From a bacterium (GTDB lineage: Bacteria; Patescibacteriota; Microgenomatia; JAMCZE01): a stretch of 64,000 nucleotides of DNA. The translations under genes were made by a program, and so were the position numbers. Below are positions 14,466 through 45,080 of the stretch, piece by piece. Numbering within the stretch: the first letter of the stretch is position 1; the number at the start of each line of letters is the position of its first letter. The stretch spans positions 138,142-202,141 of the forward strand of contig JAKBJL010000001.1 of assembly GCA_021836035.1 (NCBI GenBank). The letters run 5' to 3'. The notes beneath the pieces were generated by a model. It was not told the DNA's origin and did not search any database. It saw only the letters and a program-made list of their open reading frames with translations.

Positions 14466-14485
14466 AACTATTATTAGTCACTTCT

Positions 14486-15003: not shown

Positions 15004-15015
15004 GCCCGTTCGGTA

Positions 15016-15048: not shown

Positions 15049-15066
15049 GTGTGTTATACTAAAAAG

Positions 15067-15396: not shown

Positions 15397-15442
15397 TATA
15401 TTCTCCTTGACACCTACCGCTTCCTTAGCCATAATGTAACTA

Positions 15443-17089
15443 ATGAAAAAACTGGGAACGGTCGCGATCCTGGTCCTGTCTTTTTTCTTTTTGACAGCTT
15501 CTTCTGTTTTGGCCCAAACCAACGCCCAACGAAGGACAACTTGCGTCCAGGCCTGTCCAGCCGGAAACGGGGCCGCAGCCTGTGTAGCTAATTGCTATCA
15601 ACTTTACCCCCAAAACCAGAATAATACGCCTATCGAAAACCGCGCTGCGGAAGGCCTTTGGCAGGGAACTCCTATTGATCCGACGCTCCCCCTTTATCAA
15701 AAACAGGTTGAGGAACAGCAGCAAAAAGGCGGTGCTTATGAATGGATGAGCCAGGTAACTTTTAACTATCTGGCTTTGGCGATCACTAATAAAATTGCCG
15801 GCAGCCCCGTGACCGGACCTAACGGCAACGTTACCGGTTATCGGGGGGGGGCGATTAATCTTTTTGCTTCCCTGACCGGAACAATGTATGCTAATAAGCC
15901 GGCTTCTACAGGACAATATGTCCAATATTTGGCGCAAAACGCCGGCTTTCCCAATCTTGTTCCGGTAGCTTACGCCCAAAGCGGCGGAATTGGTTTTCAA
16001 GGATTAAATCCGATCCTACAAATTTGGCAGGTGGTCCGTAATTTAGCTTACCTGGCTTTTGCCGTGATCTTTGTTATTATCGGTTTGATGATCATGCTCC
16101 GGGTGAAGATTGATCCCAAGACTGTAGTTTCCATCCAAAACGCCCTGCCGAAAATCTTTTTGTCCTTAATTTTAATTACTTTTTCCTACCCTATCGCCGG
16201 ATTTCTAATTGATTTAATGTATGTATTAATTGGCGTGATTATCAGTCTTTTTGCCGGCGCTTTCGGTTCTTTTGATGTCACGGGTTTTAGACAAAATATA
16301 CAATATAAAACCATTTTTGAGTTTGTCGGTACCAACCTTTTTATCATGCCATCTTTCCAGAGCGGAAAATCCATCAATGATATTATTGTCGCCTTAACCG
16401 GAAACATCCCCGGTGTTTCTAATCTTTTTGGTTTTGTCGGCGGGGTTATTGGCGGGCTCATAATCTCTCTTGCCATTCTTTACGCCCTTTTTAGAACCTG
16501 GTTGATGCTTCTGGGCGCTTATATCAATATTATTATCGGCGTGATCCTTTCGCCCCTGGCGATGCTTGCCGACGCTATTCCCGGCCAGAGCGGCTTTTCC
16601 GCCTGGCTTCGTTCCATGCTTTCTAATCTCTTGCAGTTCCCTCTGGTTATTACTTTGCTCCTTTTTGGCGGCGGTTTGGTTTCCATGTCTAACCAATTCC
16701 AGCCTTCTCAAAACCCGGGTGGACCTTTTGTTCCGCCACTTATCGGAGGCAGCGATCCCAATGCGATCCCCGCCCTTATCGGTATTGGTATACTACTGAT
16801 GATCCCGAAAGCGGGAGCCATGTTGCAAGAATGGTTAAAATCTCCGCCGTTTAAACACGGTATGGCCTGGGCCGAAGCAGTAGGCTGGGCTTATTCTCCG
16901 TACGCAGGGGGTCTATTAGGGCAACCAAGGGGTAGAGAGGCTGCTGCGCAAGCAGAACGCGGTGGTTTACCACGAGGAATTTGGGATCGTTTATCCCCCC
17001 TGCCCGGAGCTGCTGCCACTGCAGCTAGCGGAGCATTAGCCCGAAGAAGATCTCCCACTGGTGGTTCGCCTTCAGCTACTACACCTTAA
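15443..17089 (+). CDS. VirB6/TrbL-like polytopic membrane protein
   Basis: Signal peptide, an extracytoplasmic domain of about 180 aa, at least six TM helices and a hydrophilic C-terminal tail. Lies immediately downstream of the pilin-like paralog array. Confidence 0.5.
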   Translation: MKKLGTVAILVLSFFFLTASSVLAQTNAQRRTTCVQACPAGNGAAACVANCYQLYPQNQNNTPIENRAAEGLWQGTPIDPTLPLYQKQVEEQQQKGGAYEWMSQVTFNYLALAITNKIAGSPVTGPNGNVTGYRGGAINLFASLTGTMYANKPASTGQYVQYLAQNAGFPNLVPVAYAQSGGIGFQGLNPILQIWQVVRNLAYLAFAVIFVIIGLMIMLRVKIDPKTVVSIQNALPKIFLSLILITFSYPIAGFLIDLMYVLIGVIISLFAGAFGSFDVTGFRQNIQYKTIFEFVGTNLFIMPSFQSGKSINDIIVALTGNIPGVSNLFGFVGGVIGGLIISLAILYALFRTWLMLLGAYINIIIGVILSPLAMLADAIPGQSGFSAWLRSMLSNLLQFPLVITLLLFGGGLVSMSNQFQPSQNPGGPFVPPLIGGSDPNAIPALIGIGILLMIPKAGAMLQEWLKSPPFKHGMAWAEAVGWAYSPYAGGLLGQPRGREAAAQAERGGLPRGIWDRLSPLPGAAATAASGALARRRSPTGGSPSATTP

Positions 17090-20019: not shown

Positions 20020-20712
20020 TTATTTCTCTCCGGACTTTTCTTCGTTAGGAGATTCCGGCTTCGGGGTTGCTTCTGCTACCGTTTCCCCCGCGGCTTCTTC
20101 CGCAGCTTTTGCCGCTTCCGCGGCGGCTGCGGCCTCCGCTTCTTTCTTGGCTTCTTCGGAAACTGCCGGAGCAACACGGACAACAATTTCTTCCGCCGGA
20201 GTAAGAACGGACACCCCCTTAGGGATTGTCAAACCCCCAACCGTGATCTGTTGATCAACCTCCGTAAGTTTACCGGCATCGATCACGATTCTCTCCGGCA
20301 AATCCGTTGGTAAAGCTTCAACTTCCACCTCGTTTAGGGTTTGGAGTAACAATCCAATCCCGGCAGTAACCGCCGGCGAGTTGTTTTCCAAGATCAAGGG
20401 TACGTTGGCCCGCAGCTTCTCGGTTAAGGAAACGGCGTGAAATTCCGCATGCAGGGGGTAACGCGTTACTGGATGTACCTGGAGCCCGCTGATCAAGGTG
20501 TGGTGGGTCTTCCCGTCTACCAATAGTTCTACCAATCCCGTTTCTCCGGCTTGACTGTATACGATTAAAAAATCCTTAACCGGCAGTTCTAAAGCCACGG
20601 ACTTTAATCCCTTACCGAAAAGATTAGCCGGCAGTAAGCCGGACTTTCTTAAATTTTTAACCTTCTTTCCGACGGTTTTCCGCACCCCGGCTTTTAAAAC
20701 TGTTTTTTCCAT
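20020..20712 (-). CDS. rplY: 50S ribosomal protein L25 / general stress protein Ctc
   Basis: An L25/Ctc-like body (KAGVRKTVGKKVKNLRKSGLLPANLFGKG...) followed by an acidic, Ala-rich tail. Confidence 0.75.
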   Translation of the reverse strand: MEKTVLKAGVRKTVGKKVKNLRKSGLLPANLFGKGLKSVALELPVKDFLIVYSQAGETGLVELLVDGKTHHTLISGLQVHPVTRYPLHAEFHAVSLTEKLRANVPLILENNSPAVTAGIGLLLQTLNEVEVEALPTDLPERIVIDAGKLTEVDQQITVGGLTIPKGVSVLTPAEEIVVRVAPAVSEEAKKEAEAAAAAEAAKAAEEAAGETVAEATPKPESPNEEKSGEK

Positions 20713-23700
20713 AGCAAATTAAATTCCCGATCCCGGGATAGATTTGTATTGTAACTTATTCTCTCCTGTCCGACAAGAGGAGACGGCAAATCGGGACTTG
20801 GCAAATCCGCCGGAACCAAAAAGGCCGGAAAGTTAATTTTTAGACTCAAGGGGTCGTTGTCCGTTCCCGCCTGTTTGCGGACATAAAAACGGTAGGCAAC
20901 TTTGTCGTTTTTATAACTTACCGCCTGGGGAAGGCTATAACGGAAAGTGACCGTCTTTTGGGAATGAATGGGAATTTCTACCAGGGTTCCAAAGGCTAAA
21001 AGTCCCGATTCGCTGCTTTGATAAACCAAAAAGCGATCCTTGGGCAATTTTTTAAGGATTGTTTCGTCCAGCTTGCTGCTGATAGTGGCCAGGCGGCTGT
21101 CCCCGATATCCAGGGAAATGTTTTGGGCTGTCCGGGGAACATAAAACCGCAGATAATTTTTATAGCGGCCCGCCGGCCAGGTGTCGGTGGCACTGTTATT
21201 TTCATAATTAACGGTGACGGTACTGGCGGCGTCGCCGCCTTTATTTAACTCCGTGACGATATTGATCTTCCGCTTCACGAAATAATTAGCTTTGTTGGCT
21301 CCCAGGTTTGCTTCGACAATCCCTAAACCGTTGTCCGCCCCCTCCGGAAAAACCAGTTTGCCGGTCCAGTTGTTTTGCGCCAGAATTTCTTCCGCCCGGG
21401 GATTTTGCAAATAAATTTGCAGGTGTTTTTCCGCAAGAGCTTCGTAGGCTGCCTGGGCCAGAAGTTGGAAATTCTTTTCCCGGTTACCGGAGAGCTTAAC
21501 CCAAAGCGCCTGAGCTACTGAACTTAGATAATCTTTCTTCTGGGTGCTGCCTGGGAAAAAATTAATTTCGGCATGGTATTCTGTCCGGTTAAAAAAATCA
21601 GCCGCGCTCACCGTCTCATTATAGTCATCCAGTTTGACCGGACCGACTGCCGCTAATAGTTTTTGGACGAAAAAGAGATCTATCCCGATAACGCCGTCCA
21701 CTTTTTCACCGGTTTCCTTTTCCAAAAACCAGGCAGCACGCTTGGCAGAAAGAGCAAAGTCGGGCGACCAATTGGAATCGCGCATAAACCAGCTCGGCTG
21801 TCCCAGAAAGTGTAAAATTTCATCCGGGGGGGTAATTTTGCCGCGCAGTTGTCCGTCGGCAGCATAAATATCCTTAATCTGGTAATCCAGCATCCGTCCG
21901 TTTTCCAGTGTCAGCACGGCAAAAGAACCCAAAAAGCCGCCGCTGGGCCGCAGCTCCGCGTTGTTTTGCAAAAGGACCAGGTATTTTTTCCGGCCGTTAA
22001 CCGCCAAGAGATCCGGCGTCAGGGGTAAAAACTGTTGACCGAAAACCAGAGCTTGCTGAATCTGCGGCAGAACAGTTAGATACTGCTGGCCGGGGAAAAA
22101 GGCCGGAAAGCGGACCAGATCTTTTTCCGCCTGCACAAAAGCCAGTCTGTCGGCAGCCATCCCCAGCTGCAAACCAATCCGGGAAAAATTGGCCGCCAAA
22201 TCCGGGGGAGCAGAATTGTCCGCAGAAGCAAATACCTGTTTTTCCATAGTTAATAGGTCGGCACCGGCCCGGGTTAGAGATAATCCCGCCCCGCTCCCCT
22301 TCTCCGCAATATCCAATAAACGGTAAAAATTATCCGCGGAAGTTTTCTGCCCGACCAGATCGGGAAACCACATAAGACTACGCCATAATTCCCGGGAACC
22401 GGCGAAACGATTTTCCGCCAATTCTATTGCTGCCGCCGCTTCCGTCATTTTCCCCTGTTCCAGGCGGTTGCGGGCAACTAACAGGGCTGCTCCCCCAACC
22501 AGAGTATTGCCGATCATGGCAGAAAAGGGAATAAAAATACTGCCGGCTAACACGATTAAACCGAGGAGAATACTCCGGGGAAAACGCCAGCGCGGCGTAG
22601 GGGGGGTTCTTTTCCCCGGTTTTTCCGGAGTCGTTTCCGTGGAAATTTTTACCGGCACCGGTTCCGTTTTCGAAATTGCCGTCGAAACCGGTGCTTGCTC
22701 TATGGGCCTTTTTTCTGCCGGCGCTTCCGTAGTGGTGGGTACTTGAGCCCCGAAAAAAGCCAGCGTTTGAGTCATCCCTTCCCTAACAAAGGTGTTCTCC
22801 CGCCATCCCAATTCCTCCTGGGATTTTTCAATATCCGCTCCCAAATAGGGGGAAGCCTTTATTCCCTGGCCGTTGCTGAACTTAATCTCTAAATTCTGAC
22901 CGCTCAGCTCGTTTAAAAGATGTGCTAAGCTGACGGTGGTGACTTTTTCCGTCCCCAAAAGCGAAAATATTTTTCCGTCCGTCTCCTGCCGGAACATGGC
23001 CTTGGACAAACCATAAATAAGATCGGTAATAAAAGTTGGATGCAGCTCCTGCAGGCCGTCGCCGGGCAGTTCCATGCTCTCCCCCCTTAACGCTTTCCTT
23101 AGAAGTGCGGCGATCATCGATTGGTCCGTAATCCGCATTCCCGGTCCGTAAACGTCGGCAACCCGGACAACTACCGCTCTGAGGCCAAATTTTTTAACAT
23201 ATTCTGAAAGTATGGTTTCCGCAAACCTTTTAGCTTCGTGGAATGCGTATTGGTGGGTCCCCTGGGCTGCCGGTTCTGCCGGTGCGGAATAGGACGTTAA
23301 AGACTTATTACTCATCACTCCCTGATATACATCAGCGCTGCTGGCTAATAAAAATTTCGCCTGGCATTTGACTGCCAGATCCAAGAGGTTTTTGGTCCCG
23401 TATGCATTAACGGTTAAACTATCCAGGGACCCCTGGCCGGGGTCCTTATTTTCTTCCGCGCCTGCTAGATGAAATATATAGGTGGGGTTCGGACAGTCAG
23501 CCGGCAAGGGAAAATTCAAATCATATTCGAGGAAGCGGAAATTGGCGTGGGTTTTAAAGGCGGCAATGTTTTCGTATTTGCCGGTCTGGAAATTATCAAC
23601 GCAAAATACCGCGAGGTTTTGGCTTAAAAGCGCTTCACAAAGACGGCTGCCGATAAATCCCGCTCCGCCCGCGACTAATGCTACGGGCATTTCTGCTAGT

Positions 23701-23741
23701 TCTTCGGTTTTAAAAATCCTTTGGGGCAGTTCACTTTCCAC
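20694..23741 (-). CDS. Fusion of an NAD-dependent sugar epimerase/dehydratase, a TM helix and a DUF4012 domain (1015 aa)
   Basis: N-terminal Rossmann GGAGFIGSRLCEALL (UDP-sugar decarboxylase/epimerase-like). A Pro-rich linker and one TM helix. A C-terminal domain carrying the NAELRPSGGFLGSFA motif typical of DUF4012. Confidence 0.65.
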   Translation of the reverse strand: MESELPQRIFKTEELAEMPVALVAGGAGFIGSRLCEALLSQNLAVFCVDNFQTGKYENIAAFKTHANFRFLEYDLNFPLPADCPNPTYIFHLAGAEENKDPGQGSLDSLTVNAYGTKNLLDLAVKCQAKFLLASSADVYQGVMSNKSLTSYSAPAEPAAQGTHQYAFHEAKRFAETILSEYVKKFGLRAVVVRVADVYGPGMRITDQSMIAALLRKALRGESMELPGDGLQELHPTFITDLIYGLSKAMFRQETDGKIFSLLGTEKVTTVSLAHLLNELSGQNLEIKFSNGQGIKASPYLGADIEKSQEELGWRENTFVREGMTQTLAFFGAQVPTTTEAPAEKRPIEQAPVSTAISKTEPVPVKISTETTPEKPGKRTPPTPRWRFPRSILLGLIVLAGSIFIPFSAMIGNTLVGGAALLVARNRLEQGKMTEAAAAIELAENRFAGSRELWRSLMWFPDLVGQKTSADNFYRLLDIAEKGSGAGLSLTRAGADLLTMEKQVFASADNSAPPDLAANFSRIGLQLGMAADRLAFVQAEKDLVRFPAFFPGQQYLTVLPQIQQALVFGQQFLPLTPDLLAVNGRKKYLVLLQNNAELRPSGGFLGSFAVLTLENGRMLDYQIKDIYAADGQLRGKITPPDEILHFLGQPSWFMRDSNWSPDFALSAKRAAWFLEKETGEKVDGVIGIDLFFVQKLLAAVGPVKLDDYNETVSAADFFNRTEYHAEINFFPGSTQKKDYLSSVAQALWVKLSGNREKNFQLLAQAAYEALAEKHLQIYLQNPRAEEILAQNNWTGKLVFPEGADNGLGIVEANLGANKANYFVKRKINIVTELNKGGDAASTVTVNYENNSATDTWPAGRYKNYLRFYVPRTAQNISLDIGDSRLATISSKLDETILKKLPKDRFLVYQSSESGLLAFGTLVEIPIHSQKTVTFRYSLPQAVSYKNDKVAYRFYVRKQAGTDNDPLSLKINFPAFLVPADLPSPDLPSPLVGQERISYNTNLSRDREFNLLWKKQF

Positions 23742-29114: not shown

Positions 29115-30503
29115 ATGAACCCCGGCGATATTTGGAAAACGGTTCTGGCGGAAATTGAAGTAGACCTGGGGAAAAGCACGACCAAAATTAACTTCAGTAA
29201 CAGCCGGCTTTTATCCCTGGAAAAAGGTATTGCCAGGATATCGCTGGCAACCAATTTAGCCCGGGAAACCGTGGAAAAAAGATATTATGTTCTGCTGCAA
29301 AATGCCCTCGAACGACAAAGCAAAGAAAAATTATCGCTTGTTTTTGAAGTAATCAAACCGGAGCTGGCCGCTCCCGCCGGACCACTCTTTGAAACCCTCA
29401 ACTTTCCGGAACAGGTCAATAAACCGGATATCAGCCGGACAGACAGTTTTAATCTGTCCAATACCGAAGAACAATACCGTAAAACCGGTCTCAATCCCAA
29501 GTACAGTTTAAAATCTCTGGTGGTCGGCGCCAGCAACAATTTTGCACACGCCGCGGCTATGACCATCTGTAAAAACCCCGGGAAAGAATATAATCCCTTC
29601 TTTATTTACGGCGGAGTCGGAGTTGGTAAAACCCACCTTATGCAGGCCATCGGCAATGAACTTTTTGTCCGCAACTCTAATCTGCGGATTTTATACATAA
29701 CCGCCGAGCATTTTATGAACGATCTAGTCGCCTCTTTACAACAAAAAACTATGCCTGCTTTCAAGAAACGCTATCGGGAAGTCGATGTTTTATTAGTGGA
29801 CGATATCCAGTTTATTTCCAAAAAAGAAGCTATGCAGGATGAGTTTTTCTATACTTTTAATTCCTTATTTATGGGCGAGAAGCAGATTATTCTTACCTCC
29901 GATCGGCCGCCGCAAGAAATCCAGGTCGAGGACCGGCTTCTTTCGCGCCTGATGGGCGGTTTAGCCGCAGATATTCAAACTCCTGATCTGGAAATGCGCA
30001 TCGCTATTATTAAACAAAAATTATCCGCCCGGCGAGAAAACTGGGATGAGGCTTCGATAGAATACCTGGCTACCCGTTTGGAAAACAACATCCGGGAAAT
30101 TGAAGGTGCTATGCAAAAAATTATGGCCGTCTCCCAGTCCGCAAACACGCCGGTAAATTTGGATTTGGTTAAAAAAGCCCTGGGAGTAGCCAACGGCCTC
30201 GATAAGCCCCCGGTTCCGGCTTCGCCGCAAAAAATTATCTCCGCGGTTTCCAAAGTCTTCGGGATTAAACAGGGAGATATTCTTTCCGATAAGCGCGATG
30301 CGGAATTTGTTTTACCCAGGCAGGTAATCATGTTCCTTTTACGGACGGATTGCCGGATTAAACTGGAAGAGGTTGCCCGGATTATGAAACGCAAAGACCA
30401 TACGACGGTTATCCACGCCGTGGGGAAAATTGAGAAACAGTTTGCGGATAATCAACAGCTAAGGCAACAGATTTTGTTGATAAAACGGGAAGTTTGGGGA
30501 TAA
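29115..30503 (+). CDS. dnaA: Chromosomal replication initiator DnaA
   Basis: AAA+ Walker A GGVGVGKTHL, Walker B LLVDDIQF, and a C-terminal DNA-binding domain (TDCRIKLEEVARIMKRKDHTTVIHAV). Confidence 0.9.
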   Translation: MNPGDIWKTVLAEIEVDLGKSTTKINFSNSRLLSLEKGIARISLATNLARETVEKRYYVLLQNALERQSKEKLSLVFEVIKPELAAPAGPLFETLNFPEQVNKPDISRTDSFNLSNTEEQYRKTGLNPKYSLKSLVVGASNNFAHAAAMTICKNPGKEYNPFFIYGGVGVGKTHLMQAIGNELFVRNSNLRILYITAEHFMNDLVASLQQKTMPAFKKRYREVDVLLVDDIQFISKKEAMQDEFFYTFNSLFMGEKQIILTSDRPPQEIQVEDRLLSRLMGGLAADIQTPDLEMRIAIIKQKLSARRENWDEASIEYLATRLENNIREIEGAMQKIMAVSQSANTPVNLDLVKKALGVANGLDKPPVPASPQKIISAVSKVFGIKQGDILSDKRDAEFVLPRQVIMFLLRTDCRIKLEEVARIMKRKDHTTVIHAVGKIEKQFADNQQLRQQILLIKREVWG

Positions 30504-30761: not shown

Positions 30762-31901
30762 ATGATGAAACTAGAAATATTACAGGAAAATTTGCTGAAG
30801 GGTCTCTCTATGGTAGGACGGGTGATCACTTCCAAGCCGCAAATGCCCGTACTGGCAAACATTCTATTGGAAACCGATAACGGCAGATTAAAACTCAGCG
30901 CTACGGATTTGGAAATCAGCATTACCACCTTAATCGGAGTCAAAATTCTTAAAGAAGGCAAATATACCATTCCGGCTAAAACTTTCGCGGAACTGGTCGG
31001 TAGCCTGCCTCCCGGGAAAGTGGAGATGGAATTAGAAGAAGGCCAGTTGGCGATAACCGCCGGCCGGTTTAAAGCCAAAGTTAACGGTGTACCGGCGCAG
31101 GAGTGGCCACTAAAGGCGATGGAAGGTAAAAAAACCGCAGGTTGGAAATTGGAAATCGCCGCGGAGGAATTCATTGTCGGTGTTGCCTGTACTTCCTTTG
31201 CTGCCGCCGCAGACGAGGGTCGGCCTGTACTTACCGGAATCTTATTTAAATTAACCGATTCCGGTTTAACCATGGTGGCTACTGACGGTTTTCGCTTATC
31301 GGTAAAAAAACTGGCAGCCGTAAAGGCGGAAGGAAAAGGGGAAGAAACAAGATCCTTTATTATTCCAGTGAAAGCGCTACAGGAGGTTGCCCGCATTTTG
31401 AGCGAGAATAAAGAATTAAAGATATTAAAAATCAATCTTACGGAAAACAGCGCGGATTTTGATTTGGGAGATACCCAGCTTTCTGCCCGTTTAATTGAGG
31501 GGCTTTATCCTGCATATGAAAAGATTATTCCCGGCGCTCCGGTGATTAAAGCCCGGGTCGGACGGGAAGAATTAGCTTCCGGGATCCGGACAGCCGGGGT
31601 TTTTGCCCGCGACAGCGCTAATATCGTCAAATTTGTTTTAAACAAATCTCAATTTTTAGTCAAAGCGGTAGCCGCTCAAGTAGGAGAGAATGAAAGCGAA
31701 ATTGACGCTAAAATCGAAGGGATAGAAGAGGAATTGGCAATTGCTTTTAATTTCCACTATCTATTGGATCTTTTAAATTGTGCCGGGAAAAGCGAAGAAC
31801 TGACTTTGGGTTTTTCCGGTCCTCTGGCCGCCGGGATGTTTAAAATCTCCGACGATCAGAGCTTCCTGCATATTATTATGCCTGTTCGGGTGCAGAGCTA
31901 G
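30762..31901 (+). CDS. dnaN: DNA polymerase III beta sliding clamp
   Basis: MKLEILQENLLKGLSMVGRVI...LANILLE...LKLSATDLE, a three-domain 379-aa protein. Lies next to dnaA. Confidence 0.85.
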   Translation: MMKLEILQENLLKGLSMVGRVITSKPQMPVLANILLETDNGRLKLSATDLEISITTLIGVKILKEGKYTIPAKTFAELVGSLPPGKVEMELEEGQLAITAGRFKAKVNGVPAQEWPLKAMEGKKTAGWKLEIAAEEFIVGVACTSFAAAADEGRPVLTGILFKLTDSGLTMVATDGFRLSVKKLAAVKAEGKGEETRSFIIPVKALQEVARILSENKELKILKINLTENSADFDLGDTQLSARLIEGLYPAYEKIIPGAPVIKARVGREELASGIRTAGVFARDSANIVKFVLNKSQFLVKAVAAQVGENESEIDAKIEGIEEELAIAFNFHYLLDLLNCAGKSEELTLGFSGPLAAGMFKISDDQSFLHIIMPVRVQS

Positions 31902-33729
31902 CCTCTTTTTCCCTTTGTTTTTTAGCGGCGATGAGCTCCTCGGGCTTACTGGTGATGAGTTCGTGTTCTTCGGGGGAGGCGACCACCTGTATGGCGACAT
32001 GCGAGGAGCCGGCAAAGAAAAGGCCTTGGCCGACATTGGCTGAAAGCAGAAGGCTTTTTTCTCCCTCGGAAAGATAAAATATCTGCGCCACTTTATCAAT
32101 CGCCGCCGGTGACTGTTTCATCAGCATTTGAATACTGCTGTTGGTAACAATGGTTTTACCCAGGTCGGTGGCGAGGAAATCTTCGATGTCCTGGGTAATC
32201 GTCGTTAGCCCCAGGTAATATTTGCGGGCGCGTTTAGCAAAACCCCATAAAAATTCGGCGCTGTTCTGGTTTTTCATTAAATACCAGCCTTCATCGACGA
32301 TTAAAATCCGCCTTTTCATTTTCCTTTTTATCTGGCTCCAGACATAATCCATAATGATAAAAATTGCCAAGCTGCGCATTTGATCCTCCAGGTTTTTAAA
32401 GGAGAATACGGTAAAAGAATTATTGAGATTCACGGTCGAGCGCTGGTTAAAGACGCCGCCGAAACTGCCTTTGACAAATTTTTCCAGGCGCAAAGCCAGA
32501 TTTTGGGCTATTTGCGTTTCCATCCCGATCAGTGTCCGATAAAGGTCTTCGAGAAGCGGCGGTTCGTTTCTGTGGGTAGCCGGATCATAGGTGATCCCTT
32601 TTTGTTTATAAGTCAGCTCCAGGGCGTTGTGCAAAATAGCATCTTCTTCGGCGGATTTTGTTTCGACCATAATTTTAAGAAGCCGCGCCAGGGTAAAACC
32701 GATTTTTAGCTGCAGTTCGTTCTCTGCTTCTTCACCGGAGCCGGATAAATCGAAAGGGTTGATATGGGTATCGCTGCCGAAAGCAAAGGAAATATAATCG
32801 CCGCCCACAGAATCGGACAGGCTTTTATATTCCTCTTCCGGATCGACAATAATCACATCCGTACCGAACATCAGAGAACGCAAAGCTTCTAATTTGACTA
32901 AAAAACTTTTTCCGCTGCCGCTTTTTCCTAAAACTACTTCATTGGCGTTTTCTAAAGAAAAACGGTCAAAGATAATCAGCGATCCGTTATGTTCGTTGAG
33001 GCCGTATAAAATTCCAGAATTAGCGGTTAGTTCCGAAGAGGTAAAAGGAAAGGTGGTAGCGAGCGACGTGGTATCCATATTGCGGGTGATCATCAGTTTG
33101 TCCAGACAAGTAGGAGAAGTAGTTTTAAAACCGTCCTCCATCTGGAGGGTCGCCGGCTTGCTGATAATCAAAAGCGCTCCTAGGGTGGAGGAGACCTCTT
33201 TAGTTAACTGGTTTAACTGTTCGATGCTGTCGCTGCTGATAGTGACATAAAGCCCGAATTGGTAAAACTTTTCCGCACCTTTGGCCAGTTGTTCCTGAAG
33301 ATTTAACGCGTCATCAAGAGCTACCTGGACATTGGGGTCAATTACTTTGCCGCGCTTGATATCGCTTTCAATGGTTGCTTCCATTTCTGCAATTTTCCGT
33401 TTCATATCGGAGAGGATCTCCTTGGACTCAACGGGATAAATAAAGATGGAAACGTCCAGACTGCTGTTGAAATTAATAAGCGGCGCCAGCCAATTGGCGC
33501 TGACAAACCGCGGGTAGCCGGCGACAAAAAGGGTGCGGTAAAATTTTTCCCCGATTTTTAAATAATCAAAATCAACTTCGATGGCGGCCGGGGCGATGAT
33601 ATCCTGGACGGTAACCATCCCGGCAGCCAGGGATTTGTCAGGGCCTTCCGGTACGCTTTCGGGCTGGAAGCGCTTTACCAGAGGGATGTTAATTTTGGGC
33701 AGTTTAACCATAAGAGAATCTTTAATCAT
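31876..33729 (-). CDS. VirB4/TrbE/CagE-family T4SS ATPase (C-terminal two thirds)
   Basis: CagE/TrbE/VirB4 signature IIAPAAIEVDFDYLKIGEKFYRTLFVAGYPRFV. Walker A GKSGSGKS. Walker B RRILIVDEGW. RKYYLGLTTITQ. Confidence 0.75.
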   Translation of the reverse strand: MIKDSLMVKLPKINIPLVKRFQPESVPEGPDKSLAAGMVTVQDIIAPAAIEVDFDYLKIGEKFYRTLFVAGYPRFVSANWLAPLINFNSSLDVSIFIYPVESKEILSDMKRKIAEMEATIESDIKRGKVIDPNVQVALDDALNLQEQLAKGAEKFYQFGLYVTISSDSIEQLNQLTKEVSSTLGALLIISKPATLQMEDGFKTTSPTCLDKLMITRNMDTTSLATTFPFTSSELTANSGILYGLNEHNGSLIIFDRFSLENANEVVLGKSGSGKSFLVKLEALRSLMFGTDVIIVDPEEEYKSLSDSVGGDYISFAFGSDTHINPFDLSGSGEEAENELQLKIGFTLARLLKIMVETKSAEEDAILHNALELTYKQKGITYDPATHRNEPPLLEDLYRTLIGMETQIAQNLALRLEKFVKGSFGGVFNQRSTVNLNNSFTVFSFKNLEDQMRSLAIFIIMDYVWSQIKRKMKRRILIVDEGWYLMKNQNSAEFLWGFAKRARKYYLGLTTITQDIEDFLATDLGKTIVTNSSIQMLMKQSPAAIDKVAQIFYLSEGEKSLLLSANVGQGLFFAGSSHVAIQVVASPEEHELITSKPEELIAAKKQREKEASSAPEQA

Positions 33730-33759
33730 TATTATATATGAAGAAGGGAACCTTGAGAA

Positions 33760-34437
33760 TTACTGGGTTGAGATTGCCGGAGAAGTGTAAGGGACGCTGC
33801 CGACCAGCTCTGTTCCTTCGGCGCCGGGATTATAAATAGTGTAAAAAAGCTCGATCAATTCCTGGGTGTTAAGCTGCCGGGCGCGCAGTCCCAGGCGCCC
33901 GAGCTGTCGGTAGATATGTTCTGCCTTAGGGGCTAAAGCGACCTTGGCCTTTTCGATGATCGTTTCTACCGGCAAAGGCAAGCCGGTTTGTTTAATCAAA
34001 AGCTTTGCCGAGCTGGAAACCCCCAATTCCAGGGAGCTGAAAGGGATGCAAATGTAGAATTTTTTGTCCAGGACGTTGTTTTCTTTGACTGTTTTGACGA
34101 TAAAATCACGGTATTTGGCAATCTGGTTTTTAAGAAGGGCGTTCTGTTGTTCATCCTCTGCTTTCTGAAGCTGGGATACGTAGGAGGAAATATCTTTACG
34201 TTTACTCCTGATGACGATCTGAATGGGGAAAGTGAGTGAATTTAAAAGGCCGGCATAAGCGTAAATAATTGCGTCCTGTTCCATTTCGGACAAAAGGCCG
34301 AAGTTGACGGCGGTAGTCTGGATGGTCAGGGTAACGGAACCGTCTTTAAGAATGATTAAATTATCCCGGATATCATAGATTTCCAGGTGTTCCTGAGTAG
34401 CCCCGCGGATAGCAACTTTACTAAGGTCGACGGGCAT
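33760..34437 (-). CDS. VirB4 N-terminal-domain-like protein, encoded separately 30 nt upstream of the ATPase ORF
   Basis: Soluble 225 aa protein (DIRDNLIILKDGSVTLTIQTTAVNFGLLSEMEQDAIIYAYAGLL), resembling VirB4/TraC N-terminal regions. The gap to the next ORF contains a stop codon and a possible AAGG ribosome-binding site. Confidence 0.45.
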   Translation of the reverse strand: MPVDLSKVAIRGATQEHLEIYDIRDNLIILKDGSVTLTIQTTAVNFGLLSEMEQDAIIYAYAGLLNSLTFPIQIVIRSKRKDISSYVSQLQKAEDEQQNALLKNQIAKYRDFIVKTVKENNVLDKKFYICIPFSSLELGVSSSAKLLIKQTGLPLPVETIIEKAKVALAPKAEHIYRQLGRLGLRARQLNTQELIELFYTIYNPGAEGTELVGSVPYTSPAISTQ

Positions 34438-35953: not shown

Positions 35954-37171
35954 TTAAGCCGCAGCCGATTGCTTTTCCTGAAGGCCTTCGGTTTGACTGC
36001 CGTCTGCTTCCGCGCTTTCCTTGGCCTCAATTTCTAACGGGGTAACGACATTGCCGTCTAATTTAATTTCTAAAATGTCGAAATGATAACCCTCTTTATC
36101 CATTTCCAAATAATAAGTGCCGCTTTCCAGCGGGGTGCTGGCTAAAAACTGGCCGACTTTATTAGTCCGCAGGGCCCGGACGCTAGTTCCCTGGATGTTT
36201 TTAATAATAACGATAACCCCGGGAAGAATTTGGTCCTGGGCATCTTTAACTACCCCGGAAATCAGGTTGGGAGTGGTAATTTGGAAAATGCCGGCGTAGG
36301 CCGGCTTGGGCGGTTTCTTTTCCGTTTTGGGCTGGGCGGGCTTGGCGTAAGGCGAATATCTTTTGGGGAAGGTCAGGTTTGCCGCTTTAATTTCCGTTGC
36401 CTCCTTGATTGTCGACTGCGGCAGCTTGGCTTGCTCCCGGATTTTTACCATCTCGTCGATGGTAATTGTCGCCTTTGGGGCCGTCTCTTTTGGTGCTTCT
36501 TGAACCCGCGCCTGTACCTGTTCTTCTAGCGGGGGTATTTTTTCCTCCGGCGACGGCTCTTCCGACGGGACTTTCGCGTTTTGATCACCGGAAAATTCCT
36601 TTAACAAATCTTCGCGGATGCGGATGAGGTCCTCGATGCCCATCTGTCGTTTTTCGTTGGGTTTTTCTTCAGGCGGGGGCAGGGGATTTAGCGCTACCTG
36701 CGGAGCCTCTTCCGCCGCCGCTTCTTCCGGTTCGGTCTGGGGCAGGGTTTGCAGATACTCCTGCAGGCGGGTGTCAGTAGGCGCCGAAGCCGCGGCTTGC
36801 TCTAAAGACACCGGCGGGGCTAAAGGTTCTTCGGTGGTCTCGGGAATATTCCAGACTCCCGCCTGTTTGCGCCCGCTTTTTTTCCAAAGATAAAGTGTCG
36901 GGCGGTAGATAGAGCGGAAGAAATTGATGACCCAGATGTCCAGCGGCCGCTCATTGACCGGGACAAAGGCAAAAGTGACCCCGGAAACAATAAAAAGGAT
37001 TGCCAGGGGGAATTTGATAATAGCATACCAATCGGAAGCATAGAAGATAAAAGCGGTAATAAATCCGGCCGCCAGGTAGCCGAATTGTTTCAGGGTCATA
37101 TCGCCGACCAGCTTAAACTCAAAACCGGTAATGTTCTGAGGGACAGGATGCTGCTCCATGGCAAATTTCAT
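35954..37171 (-). CDS. PrgI/VirB3-like two-TM N-terminal module fused to a Pro/Glu-rich linker and a C-terminal CarboxypepD_reg-like beta-sandwich domain
   Basis: N-terminus FKLVGDMTLKQFGYLAAGFI...FVPVNERPLDIWVINFFRSIYRPTLYLW resembles PrgI-family (VirB3-like) proteins of Gram-positive T4SS. C-terminus VKDAQDQILPGVIVIIKNIQG...GTYYLEMDKEGY. Confidence 0.4.
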   Translation of the reverse strand: MKFAMEQHPVPQNITGFEFKLVGDMTLKQFGYLAAGFITAFIFYASDWYAIIKFPLAILFIVSGVTFAFVPVNERPLDIWVINFFRSIYRPTLYLWKKSGRKQAGVWNIPETTEEPLAPPVSLEQAAASAPTDTRLQEYLQTLPQTEPEEAAAEEAPQVALNPLPPPEEKPNEKRQMGIEDLIRIREDLLKEFSGDQNAKVPSEEPSPEEKIPPLEEQVQARVQEAPKETAPKATITIDEMVKIREQAKLPQSTIKEATEIKAANLTFPKRYSPYAKPAQPKTEKKPPKPAYAGIFQITTPNLISGVVKDAQDQILPGVIVIIKNIQGTSVRALRTNKVGQFLASTPLESGTYYLEMDKEGYHFDILEIKLDGNVVTPLEIEAKESAEADGSQTEGLQEKQSAAA

Positions 37172-38003: not shown

Positions 38004-40706
38004 ATGGCCCAGACGAAAGCGGATACACCGATCGTTTCTGTTCCGGCAGGAAACGGTCCTGTTTTTAAGATTTCCGAATTGCAAAAATTGCGGGCACGCC
38101 GTCACGGTCCGGCGAAAAATAGATTAGCCGAAGCGCTCCGCCGGTCTATTTTAACTTACAACAAAAATCTTTTCCGGCGTCTGGCTTTAGCTCCCGGCGA
38201 CGAAAATGTGCAGACAGTGGTGGACAACTATATCGATGACGTTACGGATAATGTGGCCCAGGAACTGGCAAACGGCCGGGGACTGGAAGAAACGGTAGCG
38301 GAAACCCTGCGGGAGAATATTACGGAAGAAGAAAATATTTCCTGGGAGCCGCAGGCGGTTGCGGAAACGGCCAAGGAAGTAGCCGAAGTTGTCGACCCGG
38401 CGACAATTGCAGAGACTATTGCCGAGGAAAGAGCCCAGGAGCAAACACAGGAGGAAGAACAAGTTCCAGCACAAGGGCAAGCGGAGGGGGAAAAAGAAAA
38501 CATTCCGCCCTTAATCTTTCGGGGCTATACGCCGCCGACCAGCCAGAGACAGGAGGCCCGGACTGCGGCACCGAAAGAAGCACCTATTCACTATACCCCG
38601 GGGGTAGGTACCGGAGCCGGTGAGAAAAAACTGACGAAAGCCCGGGAGGAGATCAAAAGCCTACGGGAACGTTACGAGAAAGAGGAGCCCTCCCTTTTAC
38701 AGTCGCCGGGTCGGAGTTTGGGGCGGATCGCCGGCAGATTTGGGATTCAACTGGGACGCCGTGGACAGGTTGTTTCTCCAGAGCCGGAAGAAGGGTTTTT
38801 ACCCGGAGTACCTATGGCTCCGGTTTCTGCAGCAGCGGCAGGGAAGGAAGCCGGAAGACCCGGAACCCTTCCCGCGAAAATGCCGGATATCCAACCGGCG
38901 CAAACGGAAACAGCCCGCGAGAAAACGGCGGCAAAAGTGGCAAAAATCCAAGCCCGGCGCGAAGCCATGCTCCGCCCGGAAACCCAGGAAGCTTTGGGCG
39001 AACCGGAAGGTATCTACGGGGCTGTCCCGGGGGAACGGCCCCGAACGGCTCAGGAATTTATCCGCCAAACCCACCGCGAAAGCCCTGAGGAAATCAGGAT
39101 ACGGGCCCCGGGACCTGCCGGCTGGCTAAGCAGTATCAAAGACCGGATTTTTACCAGCCTGGGGTTGGGAAAGAAAAAAACCGCGGAAAAAGTCGCCGGT
39201 ACGGTAACGGCAGCCGCTAAGATCGCCGCCGGTAAAGAAGCACTGGCCGGGACGGGGAAAATTTTAATTTCGGCAGCGGCTAAGAAATTTGCCGGAACTG
39301 CATTGGGGACAATTCTGGGGGGACCGGTAGGGGCTGCTCTGGCCTGGGGGATCACGCTGGTAGCCGATAGACTATGGCCCGAAATTAAAAAACTATTAAA
39401 GGTTTTGGGCGGAGCGGCCGGTGCGGCATTTATGATGCTTATGACCCTTCTGGCCAAAGCCGGTTTGGCCGGTTGGGTTGCAGGCGGAGCCTTAACAGGA
39501 GCCTTAATTGGTAGTTTTATTCCTGGTGTCGGGACCATCGGCGGTTTTATCATCGGTGGTTTTGTCGGCGGGGTAGCGGGATATATTTCCCAGATGGTGG
39601 CGGCTACTAGCGCTGCCGGGGCGGGAGCAGGAGGGGTTGCGGCAACGGCGGCGACGGCTATCAGCGGTACCGTTCCTTCCCTGATGGGAATTGCGACCGG
39701 CTTAGGGGGAACGGGTCTTTTGGGAACTGCCGCCGTTTCTATTACTACGGGCCTGTCGGCAACTTTTCTTACCGCTACGATGCTTTTGGGCCTGCGCGAT
39801 GCGGTTTATCAGGATCCGGTTTATAACGCTCAGGTCGGAGCTGATATCGCCGCGCCGGTCGGGGTTTATGTAAAGAAGGTTGGTTCACCGGATACGGTAG
39901 CAAATGATCAGATCGGCAAAACGGAAATTGCCTATCTAGCCGATGTCGTTCAGGCCAGGCAAATTAAAAGCGCGACCGTCAAAGACGAAATTATTATTAA
40001 TAAAAAGGGAACTCCCGGCACCCCGATCGTTATTTTCGGTCCGCAACCATACCAGCAGGGCAAAATGTACGATTATAAAATGCCTCTGACTCCCCAAATG
40101 CAGGATTCGTTGGTAATTAATAAATTCACCATTGAAGGAACTATGGTTAATTCTGTCGGAAAGGAAGAACAGTTTACCGCCTCCGCTTCTTTCCCGATCA
40201 AAGTCGGTACGCCGTCTATGGAAGTTTTTTCCTGCCCGGTAATTAGCGGCCGGCTGTGCGAACACTCCTTAAGTAATGGTTCACCGGCTCATTGCGACAC
40301 CAATTATCGGAGCAATCCGGAACTAGATCGGATTTGCCCGGGAGGAACGAATTATTGGCAGGGCAACGAAACGGCTATTGATGTTTGTTCCACCCAGGGC
40401 GCGCCTGTTTATTTACCCTCAATTGACGGGCAGGCGGTTAATTGGCATTATGAACATGACGGCAATGATAATAATTACCCCGGCCAAAAGTACCGCCAAT
40501 TTTCGGCGACGGTTAACGGCGTTCCCTATGTTTTACAATTGCACCACATGATTAATGAGCAGGTAACCGCCAGCACTCTGGCTTCCGGGACAGTGGTAGG
40601 ACACTTGGCAGCATTTCCCGGCGGCAATACGCCGCATTCCCATATTCAGATCAAACGTAACGGCACTTTTATCTCCGCCGAAGAAGTTTTTAAAGGCTGC
40701 CTGTAA
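38004..40706 (+). CDS. Large membrane protein: acidic cytoplasmic N-terminal region, a Gly/Ala-rich multi-helix membrane region, and a C-terminal M23 (LytM-type) peptidase domain
   Basis: C-terminal NWHYEHDGND (HxxxD-like) ... LQLHHMINEQV ... PHSHIQIKRNG (HxH) matches M23 metallopeptidase motifs. A central run of glycine-zipper helices (GGPVGAALAWGITL..., GGFIIGGFVGGVAGYI). Confidence 0.55.
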   Translation: MAQTKADTPIVSVPAGNGPVFKISELQKLRARRHGPAKNRLAEALRRSILTYNKNLFRRLALAPGDENVQTVVDNYIDDVTDNVAQELANGRGLEETVAETLRENITEEENISWEPQAVAETAKEVAEVVDPATIAETIAEERAQEQTQEEEQVPAQGQAEGEKENIPPLIFRGYTPPTSQRQEARTAAPKEAPIHYTPGVGTGAGEKKLTKAREEIKSLRERYEKEEPSLLQSPGRSLGRIAGRFGIQLGRRGQVVSPEPEEGFLPGVPMAPVSAAAAGKEAGRPGTLPAKMPDIQPAQTETAREKTAAKVAKIQARREAMLRPETQEALGEPEGIYGAVPGERPRTAQEFIRQTHRESPEEIRIRAPGPAGWLSSIKDRIFTSLGLGKKKTAEKVAGTVTAAAKIAAGKEALAGTGKILISAAAKKFAGTALGTILGGPVGAALAWGITLVADRLWPEIKKLLKVLGGAAGAAFMMLMTLLAKAGLAGWVAGGALTGALIGSFIPGVGTIGGFIIGGFVGGVAGYISQMVAATSAAGAGAGGVAATAATAISGTVPSLMGIATGLGGTGLLGTAAVSITTGLSATFLTATMLLGLRDAVYQDPVYNAQVGADIAAPVGVYVKKVGSPDTVANDQIGKTEIAYLADVVQARQIKSATVKDEIIINKKGTPGTPIVIFGPQPYQQGKMYDYKMPLTPQMQDSLVINKFTIEGTMVNSVGKEEQFTASASFPIKVGTPSMEVFSCPVISGRLCEHSLSNGSPAHCDTNYRSNPELDRICPGGTNYWQGNETAIDVCSTQGAPVYLPSIDGQAVNWHYEHDGNDNNYPGQKYRQFSATVNGVPYVLQLHHMINEQVTASTLASGTVVGHLAAFPGGNTPHSHIQIKRNGTFISAEEVFKGCL

Positions 40707-43832: not shown

Positions 43833-45080
43833 ATGAAGAAGATACCGGGGGTGAATTTTTATTTTTTCCGCCATTGGCGGGTCAGCCTTGGGCTGATATT
43901 TTTTATTTTTTATTTAGTGCCGGCCCCGGTGCTAGCCCAGGGCTATGAGCTGCTTCCCGCCGGGCAGGTTATTGGCTCCGATTTTATCAGAGCCGCCGAT
44001 ACGGTCCAAATTGACGGCGAAATCAAAGGCGACGCTTTTTTAGCCGGCGGGTTGGTGACGGTAAACGGCCCCGTAGACGGCGACCTGTTTGTTGTCGGCG
44101 GCAAAGTCAATATCAACGGCCCGGTGGGTAACAGCATCCGGGTTCTAGCCGGAGATGTTTCCGTTAATAGTACGGTGGGGCGGAATGTCCTCCTCTTGTG
44201 CGGCAATTGTACCGTAACCCGCAGGGCGACAATCTCCGGGAGTTTACTAACCGCCGGCGGCAATCTGGAGTTATCGGCGGCCAAAATCGGCCGCGGCTTT
44301 CGCTTTTTGGGCAGCCGTTTATATTTAAATTCGGAGATTGCCAACGAAGCTTTTGTCGTCGCCGACAGGGAATTTTTACTGGGGCCAATGGCTTCAATTT
44401 CCGGCAGTTTAAAATATACCGGAAGCACCGAAGCGGTTTTGGAACCGGGGGCTACCGTTGCCGGCAATATTGCTTATCAGAAAACAACCAGGGATGAAAC
44501 TTTCCCGCGCTTTTTCGGTGCCCGGACGGTGCTTTCCTCGTATCAGCGGATTAAACCGCTGACCGACTTCCTGGGTTTTGTCGTTTCGGCAATCATCGGC
44601 TTTATTCTGCTCGGACTTTTTCCCAGGGGTTTTGAGAAAGTGGTATCGGCGATAGAAAATCGGCCTTATGCCAGTTTTGGCTGGGGCATTGTCGTTGTCT
44701 TAATGGTCCCTACTTTAGCCCTGTTGTTTGCGATTACTCTCATCGGGATCCCCGTATCGCTGGTTATTTTACTTCTGGCCTATCTGGCGTGGATTTTAGC
44801 CCAGTATCTGATGGCTTTTTTTATCGGCCGGCGTATTTTATTTGCCCGCTTCGGGGAGCGGCGCGGTTGGGCTCTCGTTTTGGGCCTGTTTTTAATTTAT
44901 TTGGTGGGTCTTGTCCCGATTATCGGAGGGATTGTGAAGCTTATATTGGTGCTCTTTGCCTTAGGAGCGATAATCCTGGCTTACCGGCAACCGGAAATCT
45001 ATATTCAGAAACAATTACCCTTCGATTACCACCCGGCTCCCGAGCGCTCACGAAAAATAAGATTTAAAAACAAAATATAA
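43833..45080 (+). CDS. Membrane protein with N-terminal signal, a bactofilin-like beta-helical repeat region and a C-terminal multi-TM domain
   Basis: Repeats DGEIKGDAFLAGGLVTVNGPVDGDLFVVGGKVNINGPVGNSIRVLAGDVSVN, followed by four hydrophobic helices. Confidence 0.4.
   Translation: MKKIPGVNFYFFRHWRVSLGLIFFIFYLVPAPVLAQGYELLPAGQVIGSDFIRAADTVQIDGEIKGDAFLAGGLVTVNGPVDGDLFVVGGKVNINGPVGNSIRVLAGDVSVNSTVGRNVLLLCGNCTVTRRATISGSLLTAGGNLELSAAKIGRGFRFLGSRLYLNSEIANEAFVVADREFLLGPMASISGSLKYTGSTEAVLEPGATVAGNIAYQKTTRDETFPRFFGARTVLSSYQRIKPLTDFLGFVVSAIIGFILLGLFPRGFEKVVSAIENRPYASFGWGIVVVLMVPTLALLFAITLIGIPVSLVILLLAYLAWILAQYLMAFFIGRRILFARFGERRGWALVLGLFLIYLVGLVPIIGGIVKLILVLFALGAIILAYRQPEIYIQKQLPFDYHPAPERSRKIRFKNKI

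Follow-up and report, generated by a model that had tools for sequence, protein, structure and literature searches.

The question raised by this locus is whether a VirB4-family T4SS ATPase encoded as two adjacent ORFs, of 225 and 617 amino acids (aa), is a genuinely split VirB4 or the remains of an inactivating mutation, both of which had been offered in the initial annotation. The locus very probably represents the normal two-gene VirB4 motor of a chromosomal, relaxase-less T4SS of the Patescibacteria (CPR), carried by a Microgenomates-type genome. From sequence comparison, the split was judged to be real and functional, typical of the lineage and known from earlier work, and not a broken gene. 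It was accepted because the pieces are homologous and complementary, the motifs are intact, the split is conserved, the junctions are tight or overlapping, re-fusion occurs occasionally, and the genes stand in a T4SS and oriC context. These deductions are supported by the following data.

Layout of the ORF pair and its junction

In the window (the whole 64-kb stretch of DNA analysed), both ORFs were present with the coordinates and lengths first reported, and their strand, which had been left out, is minus. The soluble ORF of 225 aa, TrsD-like or, by precomputed annotation, "TraC-like" (PF26593), lies at 33760..34437 and was assigned to the first N-terminal subdomain of full-length VirB4. The VirB4 core ORF of 617 aa lies at 31876..33729 and was assigned to the second half of the VirB4 N-terminal domain together with the C-terminal P-loop ATPase domain. 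The stop and 30-nt spacer described between them could be read directly from the sequence, with the TAA stop of the 225-aa ORF at 33760-33762 and the spacer at 33730..33759 on the minus strand, its coding-strand sequence being TTCTCAAGGTTCCCTTCTTCATATATAATA. The two ORFs share a reading frame, their ATG-to-ATG distance is 708 nt, and the spacer amounts to ten sense codons without a stop. Exactly this picture would be expected of a pseudogene left behind when a formerly full-length virB4 was recently broken by a point mutation to one in-frame TAA stop.

The AAGG proposed as a possible ribosome-binding site does exist, but it lies 21 nt upstream of the ATG of the 617-aa ORF and is regarded as a weak suggestion because this distance exceeds normal Shine-Dalgarno spacing. 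In the NCBI gene call on an identical contig, the ATPase starts at Met7 and is 611 aa long instead of 617 aa. When the junction was scanned for promoters and terminators, a sigma70-like match, TTCTCA-17-TATAAT, was obtained inside the spacer. This match was not used as evidence because sigma70-like matches occurred in the junction region at chance frequency only, their count being equal to the shuffled expectation. Compared with the rest of the family, the junction is unusual in having a 30-nt spacer, a shared frame and no convincing Shine-Dalgarno sequence, whereas relatives mostly overlap, and for the same reasons translational coupling is not evident in the window.

Complementary coverage of VirB4 by the two ORFs

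The assignment of the 617-aa ORF to VirB4, made from sequence models, is far beyond chance. The best curated model was that of the Firmicutes MPF_FATA-type VirB4 (CD1110, NCBIfam NF045971), which matched at 1.3e-117 and 394 bits (cutoff, 325) over model positions 183-734 of 752. Scores were below the curated cutoffs of the TIGR00929, TraC-F-type and VirB4_plasma models (NCBIfam), of which VirB4_plasma was covered at positions 293-893 of 894 and TIGR00929 at 238-728 of 792 (residues 60-565 of the ORF). Since the three models begin to match only at positions 183, 293 and 238, respectively, the ORF was deduced to have an incomplete N-terminal domain, roughly 180-240 model positions being absent from its start. 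Pfam gave P-loop_TraG (3.9e-33) along with AAA_10 and DUF87, while PDB 4AG5 (VirB4 CTD) aligned to residues 231-593 at 9.4e-46, and the C-terminal domain also matched TrwK. The CagE/TrbE/VirB4 signature, IIAPAAIEVDFDYLKIGEKFYRTLFVAGYPRFV, with which the ORF was said to begin almost directly, is near the start but not at it, occupying residues 44-76. The Walker motifs, also reported earlier, were located at residues 268-275 (Walker A, GKSGSGKS) and 475-480 (Walker B, ILIVDE), and both are intact.

The part absent from the 617-aa ORF appears to be supplied by its neighbour. The 225-aa ORF was matched at positions 113-233 of the 894 of VirB4_plasma (3.3e-8) and at positions 13-119 of the 752 of CD1110 (9.4e-5), both NCBIfam models, and in all, three independent VirB4-family models match it in their N-terminal regions only. 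Together, the two ORFs span the whole of the CD1110 (CD1110/Tn916-type) and VirB4_plasma (mycoplasma ICE VirB4) models. The sequence comparison thus supports the 225-aa ORF as the missing N-terminal part of VirB4, complementary to the 617-aa ORF, in agreement with the earlier description of this region as a separate soluble ORF just upstream. Similarity of the 225-aa ORF to VirB4 N-terminal regions had been named as a test, and its detection favours a genuine split. The difference from full-length VirB4 is that two polypeptides are present; the N-terminal domain itself is divided, the break not coinciding with the boundary between the N-terminal and ATPase domains.

The family of the 225-aa ORF could be placed less closely. 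It scored 27.3 bits (E 2.8e-6) with the NCBIfam TrsD/TraD family NF041427 and is deduced to be a distant relative rather than a member of this curated subfamily, because the score is far under the curated cutoff of 200. PF26593 (TraC-like) is the precomputed annotation on the identical protein and on nearly all homologues; the local Pfam copy, which presumably lacks the model, did not give it, and a local Pfam scan of the ORF up to E 10 returned no significant family, with TraC_F_IV at E 0.055. A search of the family profile against PDB sequences (E up to 10) gave no match, and homology to solved VirB4 structures is visible at the fold level only. In Foldseek, the top 13 matches of the 225-aa structural model were all to TrwK of R388 (PDB 7O41-7O43, 8RTB and 8RTD), which is one polypeptide. 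The alpha/beta core of the model is nearly as similar to T3SS CesT-type chaperones as it is to TrwK. The family profile also matched residues 114-246 of a fused 1344-aa VirB4 from the actinobacterium Rubrobacter (E 9e-9).

The classical precedent for this two-gene architecture is TrsD-TrsE of the staphylococcal plasmids pGO1/pSK41 (MPF_FATA, pGO1 subclass). In pSK41, trsD (227 aa) is followed by trsE (672 aa) after a 14-nt gap, sizes like those of the window pair. The family profile aligned end to end with pSK41 TrsD at E 5.9e-5, with an hhalign probability of only 65%, while the 617-aa ORF is 27% identical to TrsE (1e-45). The same TrsD/VirB4 split is found on a Pontibacillus plasmid. The 225-aa ORF or its counterpart is directly upstream of and co-directional with virB4 in the window, in 80 related loci and on both plasmids. 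However, pSK41 is conjugative, and a single operon of this plasmid contains genes for a relaxase, a VirD4-like coupling protein, a TrbL-like protein and a CHAP-domain protein, whereas the window locus is chromosomal and lacks these genes.

Conservation of the split and reading frames in relatives

Homologues of the 225-aa ORF number 3116; they are stand-alone and nearly all 212-260 aa long, and among 38 sequences of the family 44 columns are invariant. The closest homologues are all from Patescibacteria, and every contig among the nearest relatives (55-83% identity) belongs to Microgenomates/Patescibacteria. The check for the split in related genomes was run on 80 Microgenomates loci in which the TrsD-like gene and virB4 are adjacent and co-directional; 78 were split and 2 naturally fused, the fusion count used (2/80) being that of a same-frame test. 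A re-analysis with different criteria found 71 of 78 loci split, with fusions over-called since overlapping genes in different frames were counted, and ATGA overlaps (n=23) with a median gap of -1 nt. Across the 80 loci, the relative frames +2, +1 and 0 were found 45, 24 and 11 times, the last including the 2 true fusions, and the in-frame state is the rarest, at 11/80 compared with the one third expected by chance.

It was concluded that a nonsense mutation is extremely improbable as the origin of the split. Fused versions do occur in some relatives, as this explanation would require, but 78 of the 80 loci are split, mostly in the +2 or +1 frame and frequently with ATGA overlaps, and the explanation is effectively refuted because one mutation cannot yield splits in other frames with such overlaps. 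The large number of strongly conserved stand-alone homologues of about 225 aa, the intactness of both ORFs and the preserved catalytic motifs also argue against it. A pseudogene produced by nonsense mutation was thus rejected on the comparative frame and split data. Of the two readings initially offered, the inactivating mutation fell on these numbers, and the genuine split stood on the complementary model coverage. The probability that sequencing or assembly introduced the stop codon in error is negligible. The window derives from a MAG (GCA_027371575.1), a type of assembly in which errors do occur, but the identical 225-aa protein was found on 7 contigs of different origin (NCBI, ENA and Logan assemblies), and the split is the family norm.

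Programmed readthrough of the in-frame TAA, giving a fused protein of about 853 aa besides or instead of the two proteins, was deemed very unlikely. It would accord with the shared frame, the single TAA, the spacer without a stop and the lack of a good Shine-Dalgarno sequence before the downstream ATG, and the natural fusions show that a fused form is functional. Against it, TAA is the least leaky stop codon, and the in-frame arrangement is not a conserved feature, because it is the rarest state among the relatives even with the 2 fusions included. Conserved programmed readthrough as a family feature was ruled out by this under-representation.

Natural fusions provide further support for two polypeptides acting as one VirB4. 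One relative (L046) encodes a 787-aa TrsD-VirB4 fusion, and in another (L043) a PrgI/VirB3-like protein, the TrsD-like protein and VirB4 form one ORF, a triple fusion comparable to the VirB3-VirB4 fusions of some conjugative systems, whereas the window keeps three genes. The triple fusion indicates that the same three modules act together, and fusions of both types serve as Rosetta-stone evidence for the three proteins functioning as a single unit. No VirB3-VirB4 fusions were reported from the Patescibacteria dataset of Quinonero-Coronel et al. 2025 (PMC12102498). The fusions also bear on whether the 225-aa ORF could instead be an unrelated accessory protein, such as a secretion-chaperone-like adaptor, beside a naturally short VirB4. 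This was considered highly improbable: the module order in the fusions is TrsD and then VirB4, and a TraC_F_IV match spans the junction in L046. The N-terminal-only matches to three VirB4-family models complementary to the 617-aa ORF, the profile match to the N terminus of the Rubrobacter protein and the uniform TrwK matches in Foldseek likewise stand against it.

Genomic context and proposed role

Other T4SS genes were identified in the window. A 405-aa PrgI/VirB3-like membrane protein with a C-terminal CarboxypepD_reg domain is encoded at 35954..37171 on the minus strand (Pfam PrgI, 1.4e-6; CarboxypepD_reg, 1e-7). A hydropathy scan gave one strong TM segment at residues 54-72, and the protein probably anchors the VirB4 complex in the membrane. 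Its orthologue is directly upstream of the TrsD-like gene in two related loci (L001 and L046). Three VirB2-like T4SS_pilin genes lie on the plus strand at 13253-14113, 14115-14465 and 15046-15396 (Pfam PF18895, 1.1e-7, 1.8e-6 and 5.5e-4, respectively), with an NCBIfam match to the Mbov_0395 pilin-like family and two C-terminal TM segments in each. Directly after them, at 15443..17089 on the plus strand, a 548-aa protein with a signal peptide and approximately 8 TM segments (hydropathy scan) is, by inference only, a candidate VirB6-like channel subunit. Searches for a VirB6-, VirB8- or VirB1-like partner gave no family match for this ORF (Pfam/NCBIfam, E up to 10) or for 38004-40706, 43833-45080 and 17093-18958, VirB6 being rarely detectable in Microgenomatia (PMC12102498). 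In L046, virB4 is followed by an 890-aa ORF, to which the 900-aa ORF of the window had no detectable similarity.

The pair is in a replication-origin context. The plus-strand genes dnaA (29115-30503; Pfam Bac_DnaA) and dnaN (30762-31901; Pfam DNA_pol3_beta domains) are close by, dnaN being convergent with virB4 and overlapping its 3' end by 26 nt, and dnaA, dnaN, rnpA, yidC and jag are all within 6 kb of the pair. The same dnaA/dnaN neighbourhood was found in four related loci (L001-L004). The flanking housekeeping genes are dnaA, dnaN, a class I aminoacyl-tRNA synthetase gene (Pfam tRNA-synt_1), lepA, murJ, tsaD and smpB. As first noted, no VirD4/T4CP, relaxase or VirB8 was found by Pfam and NCBIfam among approximately 60 ORFs of at least 100 aa in the 64-kb window. 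The linked relaxase, VirD4/TcpA and oriT that mark a classical conjugative element (an MPF_FATA plasmid or ICE) were not found in these 64 kb, and the argument already made against such an element is supported by the chromosomal position beside dnaN-dnaA.

The locus instead has the features of the Patescibacteria T4SS clade: TrsD, PrgI/VirB3 and VirB2-like pilin genes, a chromosomal location near dnaA/dnaN and no relaxase. In the survey of that clade, TrsD was the most abundant component, with 2272 homologues, of which 1664 adjoin virB4; virB4 is near dnaA/dnaN in Microgenomatia and Paceibacteria, with no relaxase; and Patescibacteria VirB4 is a monophyletic clade nested in MPF_FATA (PMC12102498). 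The window agrees with these systems in the TrsD homologue just upstream of virB4, the PrgI/VirB3-like protein and VirB2-like pilins, the lack of a relaxase or coupling protein by virB4, and the position beside dnaN/dnaA/rnpA. Nothing substantive differs; the window has its 30-nt in-frame spacer in place of the usual overlap or short gap, and its PrgI-like gene is set off from the TrsD-virB4 pair by two opposite-strand genes (for a ZIP transporter and a methylpurine glycosylase).

For the preferred two-gene motor, the 225-aa TrsD-like protein would be the first VirB4 N-terminal subdomain made as a separate soluble polypeptide. The two proteins are probably co-translated from one operon and would associate non-covalently to form the equivalent of VirB4. 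The TrsD-like protein is predicted to be membrane proximal and to contact VirB3 (here PrgI-like), by analogy with the N-terminal domain of TrwK in the structure from R388, and a hexameric ATPase would then power VirB2-like pilin assembly and substrate transfer. Alternatively, the TrsD-like piece could act as an adaptor, dosed separately or exchangeable, that gates or recruits substrates to a coupling-protein-independent, relaxase-less T4SS, to which a minor isoform fused by readthrough of the single in-frame TAA might add in this genome. This was suggested by the near-equal resemblance of its core to CesT-type chaperones and is considered unlikely.

Recognition of the 225-aa gene as a detached VirB4 N-terminal module avoids two misannotations, as a pseudogene and as a conjugative-element remnant. 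Patescibacteria account for much of bacterial diversity, and no T4SS other than their chromosomal one has been reported to be indispensable to the cell that carries it, which depends on it for epibiotic growth on a host bacterium. In the one patescibacterium tested genetically, Ca. Southlakia epibionticum ML1, T4SS genes including a TrsD homologue are reported to be essential for epibiotic growth by Tn-seq (Wang et al. 2023, as cited in PMC12102498). No new principle emerges from the window, as the TrsD plus VirB4 architecture, the near-origin location and the lack of a relaxase had all been published before. What is added is modest and consists of side results of the comparisons, namely, the natural TrsD-VirB4 and PrgI-TrsD-VirB4 fusions and the Walker A inteins. 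The latter are homing-endonuclease inteins, observed inside the VirB4 Walker A (P-loop) motif of several relatives.

The gene pair and its junction

The two adjacent, co-directional ORFs proposed as VirB4 in the initial annotation were confirmed at 33760-34437 (minus strand; 225 aa) and 31876-33729 (minus strand; 617 aa), and the pair is very probably a two-gene VirB4. This interpretation is based on two intact, conserved genes whose products jointly span full VirB4, on intact ATPase motifs, on tight gene coupling in relatives, and on the fusion order VirB3, TrsD, VirB4. The 617-aa ORF was deduced from its sequence to be a VirB4-family ATPase, as it matched the NCBIfam CD1110 VirB4-like model (1.3e-117, 394 bits, cutoff 325), Pfam P-loop_TraG (3.9e-33) and, over residues 231-593, the VirB4 C-terminal domain of PDB 4AG5 (9.4e-46). 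The annotated Walker A (GKSGSGKS, residues 268-275) and Walker B (ILIVDE, 475-480) motifs are intact. The VirB4-like motif quoted in the initial annotation is also present, at residues 44-76, near the start of the ORF rather than at it.

Alignments of the 617-aa ORF begin deep within the full-length VirB4 models, at position 183 of 752 in CD1110, 293 of 894 in VirB4_plasma and 238 of 792 in TIGR00929. The 225-aa ORF, a TrsD-like protein, matched VirB4_plasma at positions 113-233 (3.3e-8), CD1110 at positions 13-119 (9.4e-5) and the TrsD/TraD family model (2.8e-6), each under the curated cutoff. Similarity to VirB4 N termini, the absence of which had been named as grounds for rejecting a split, was therefore found. 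The two ORFs cover complementary positions of CD1110 and VirB4_plasma, and the model region absent from the 617-aa ORF is exactly what the 225-aa ORF supplies. An identical protein and homologues carry the label PF26593 "TraC-like" in a public protein collection, while PF26593 was not among the families returned when the 225-aa ORF was scanned with the local Pfam copy. A hydropathy scan predicted no membrane segment in either protein, in agreement with the annotated solubility of the 225-aa product.

Between the ORFs lie a TAA stop and a 30-nt spacer (coding strand, TTCTCAAGGTTCCCTTCTTCATATATAATA). Both are in one reading frame, a point absent from the initial annotation. The AAGG proposed there as a ribosome-binding site is present but, at 21 nt from the ATG of the 617-aa ORF, is not convincing in that role. 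On the identical contig, NCBI places the start of the ATPase at Met7 (611 aa). A sigma70-like match (TTCTCA-17 nt-TATAAT; 33731-33759, minus strand) fills nearly the whole spacer and ends 1 nt before the ATG; such matches around the junction occur at the frequency expected by chance in the region. If it were used, transcripts would begin inside the first codons, favoring the Met7 start (611 aa).

Conservation of the split in relatives

Searching a protein collection with the 225-aa sequence gave 3116 matches. Among the matches listed, nearly all were 212-260 aa with 57-79% identity, and the names given were Patescibacteria, Microgenomates or Gottesmanbacteria; the family alignment (38 sequences) contains 44 invariant columns. 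One genome per species was scanned, which yielded 581 encoding loci; the 80 that were fetched, together with four further related loci (L001-L004), made up the analysis set of 84. The TrsD-like and ATPase genes were adjacent and co-directional in 80 of these; the remaining four comprised two loci that stop short of the ATPase gene, one with a divergent ATPase and one with no ATPase nearby. The adjacent genes were split in 78 of 80 loci and fused into one ORF in 2, the frame of the downstream gene relative to the upstream one being +2 in 45, +1 in 24 and 0 in 11. A re-analysis under different criteria (three identical loci merged to one, looser fusion calls) gave 71 of 78 loci split, with a 4-nt ATGA overlap in 23 of the 71 and a median gap of −1 nt.

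A split in three frames with stop-start overlaps is the hallmark of two genes in one operon with coupled translation. The initial annotation had weighed a genuinely split VirB4 against an inactivating mutation; the former was upheld by the related genomes, and the latter was rejected, as the occurrence of all three frames and of overlapping stop and start codons rules out a single nonsense mutation as the origin of the split. Since relatives are split in all frames with overlaps, the in-frame window junction with its 30-nt spacer is an unusual variant of the normal arrangement. It is no evidence for conserved readthrough. The identical 225-aa product occurs on 7 contigs drawn from several assembly sources, which speaks against an assembly error as the cause of the stop.

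Many third-party-annotated MAG contigs among loci L009-L084 are titled "uncultured Gammaproteobacteria," "Pseudomonadales," "Bathyarchaeia," "Nevskiaceae" or "Clostridia." On contigs with the Microgenomates-type gene pair, these non-Patescibacteria titles look like taxonomy-label errors in public records.

Fusions, inteins and plasmid precedents

One fused locus (L046, CAYHNU010000002.1) encodes a 787-aa TrsD-VirB4 protein (4986-7349, plus strand) that lacks the TrsD-like part's low-confidence C-terminal tail and ~44 N-terminal ATPase residues; a weak TraC_F_IV match bridges the TrsD/VirB4 junction, and the separate PrgI-like gene has an ATGA overlap with the fused gene. The other (L043, LCOA01000014.1, "Ca. 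Amesbacteria" GW2011_GWA1_47_20) is a single 1584-aa ORF (4254-9008, plus strand) comprising a PrgI domain, a CarboxypepD_reg domain, a TrsD-like segment and VirB4. The junction sequence is identical in both, and the split gene appears to have been re-fused in one lineage. The PrgI-TrsD-VirB4 fusion may be unreported so far, since PMC12102498 states that Patescibacteria yielded no fusion of VirB3 with VirB4; its PrgI-TrsD junction could also be an artefact of misassembly by 1 nt at an overlapping ATGA.

The natural fusions point to a single functional unit made up of the PrgI/VirB3-like protein, the TrsD-like protein and the VirB4 core. From R388 structures, to which the structural model of the 225-aa protein is similar, and general knowledge of VirB4, we propose that the TrsD-like protein would dock on the 617-aa protein, completing the N-terminal domain, and would lie at the membrane-proximal face, touching the PrgI/VirB3-like anchor. 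The assembled hexamer would then supply the energy to extract pilins, assemble the pilus and pass substrate. The specific docking geometry is put forward with moderate confidence.

Enlarged VirB4 ORFs were found in L015 (5770-9426), L020 (3814-7509) and L066 (5764-9462), each ~1220 aa, and in the L043 fusion. All four carry an insertion of ~550-600 aa at or just before Walker A, which in L043 breaks the motif itself (GSGKS / ... HN / SYLVKLE). Pfam scans of the L043 and L015 ORFs returned Intein_splicing and LAGLIDADG_3, and the insertion in these two was deduced to be a homing-endonuclease intein in the P-loop.

The same two-gene order occurs on pSK41 of Staphylococcus aureus, where trsD (227 aa) is followed 14 nt on by trsE (672 aa). 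The 225-aa family profile aligned with TrsD over the whole length (E 5.9e-5, probability 65%), and the 617-aa ORF matched TrsE at 27% identity (1e-45). A tblastn search of plasmids matched 410 records, mostly Bacillus and Clostridium. The best was a Pontibacillus megaplasmid, on which a hypothetical gene of 274 aa runs into the start of a "VirB4-like, CD1110 family" gene of 621 aa. A Rubrobacter plasmid carries the homologous segment as residues 114-246 within a single 1344-aa ATP-binding protein (hhalign with the family profile, E 9e-9, probability 95.7%).

Genomic context and known Patescibacteria systems

The locus is chromosomal. It lies in the origin neighborhood, with dnaA (29115-30503, plus strand) and dnaN (30762-31901, plus strand) convergent to the ATPase gene, which dnaN overlaps by 26 nt; immediately beyond come rnpA, yidC and a Jag-like gene. 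Upstream on the strand of the pair is a PrgI-family protein gene with a CarboxypepD_reg domain (35954-37171, minus strand), separated from it by two opposite-strand genes, for a ZIP transporter and a methylpurine glycosylase. The neighborhood PrgI, TraC-like, VirB4, dnaN, dnaA, rnpA recurs in relatives. Three VirB2-like T4SS_pilin genes (PF18895; 13253-15396, plus strand) are followed directly by a gene for a 548-aa protein with a signal peptide and ~8 TM segments (within 13253-17089, plus strand). This polytopic protein matched no Pfam or NCBIfam family at E up to 10 and is put forward as a candidate VirB6, the component "missing" from Microgenomatia. As initially annotated, the scanned ORFs of the 64-kb window gave no match to a coupling protein (VirD4), relaxase or VirB8 family.

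These features match point by point those reported by Quinonero-Coronel et al. (2025; PMC12102498) from 3035 Patescibacteria genomes. In that survey, VirB4 forms a Patescibacteria clade nested inside MPF_FATA, PrgI/VirB3 and VirB2-like pilins occur widely, Microgenomatia seldom have a VirB6, there are no relaxases, and the virB4 of Microgenomatia and Paceibacteria lies close to dnaA, dnaN and rnpA. It also lists the TrsD homologue of "Ca. Southlakia epibionticum" as essential (data of Wang et al. 2023). Because these findings match and a 2025 review places the Patescibacteria systems in the T4SS superfamily as accepted newcomers (PMC12857230), the two-gene VirB4 is already known in kind and detail and is ordinary for Patescibacteria. 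Uptake of host macromolecules by these systems has been proposed in the literature as a hypothesis only.

A 900-aa ORF (38004-40706, plus strand) with a glycine-rich hydrophobic middle (~435-590) has the PrgI-like gene on one side and a class I aminoacyl-tRNA synthetase gene (Pfam tRNA-synt_1) on the other. It had no family match in Pfam or NCBIfam and no detectable similarity to the 890-aa ORF after virB4 in L046. Elsewhere in the window are type IV pilus PilO and PilN genes (8093-9258, minus strand) and a 1015-aa NAD-dependent epimerase/DUF4012 fusion (20694-23741, minus strand).
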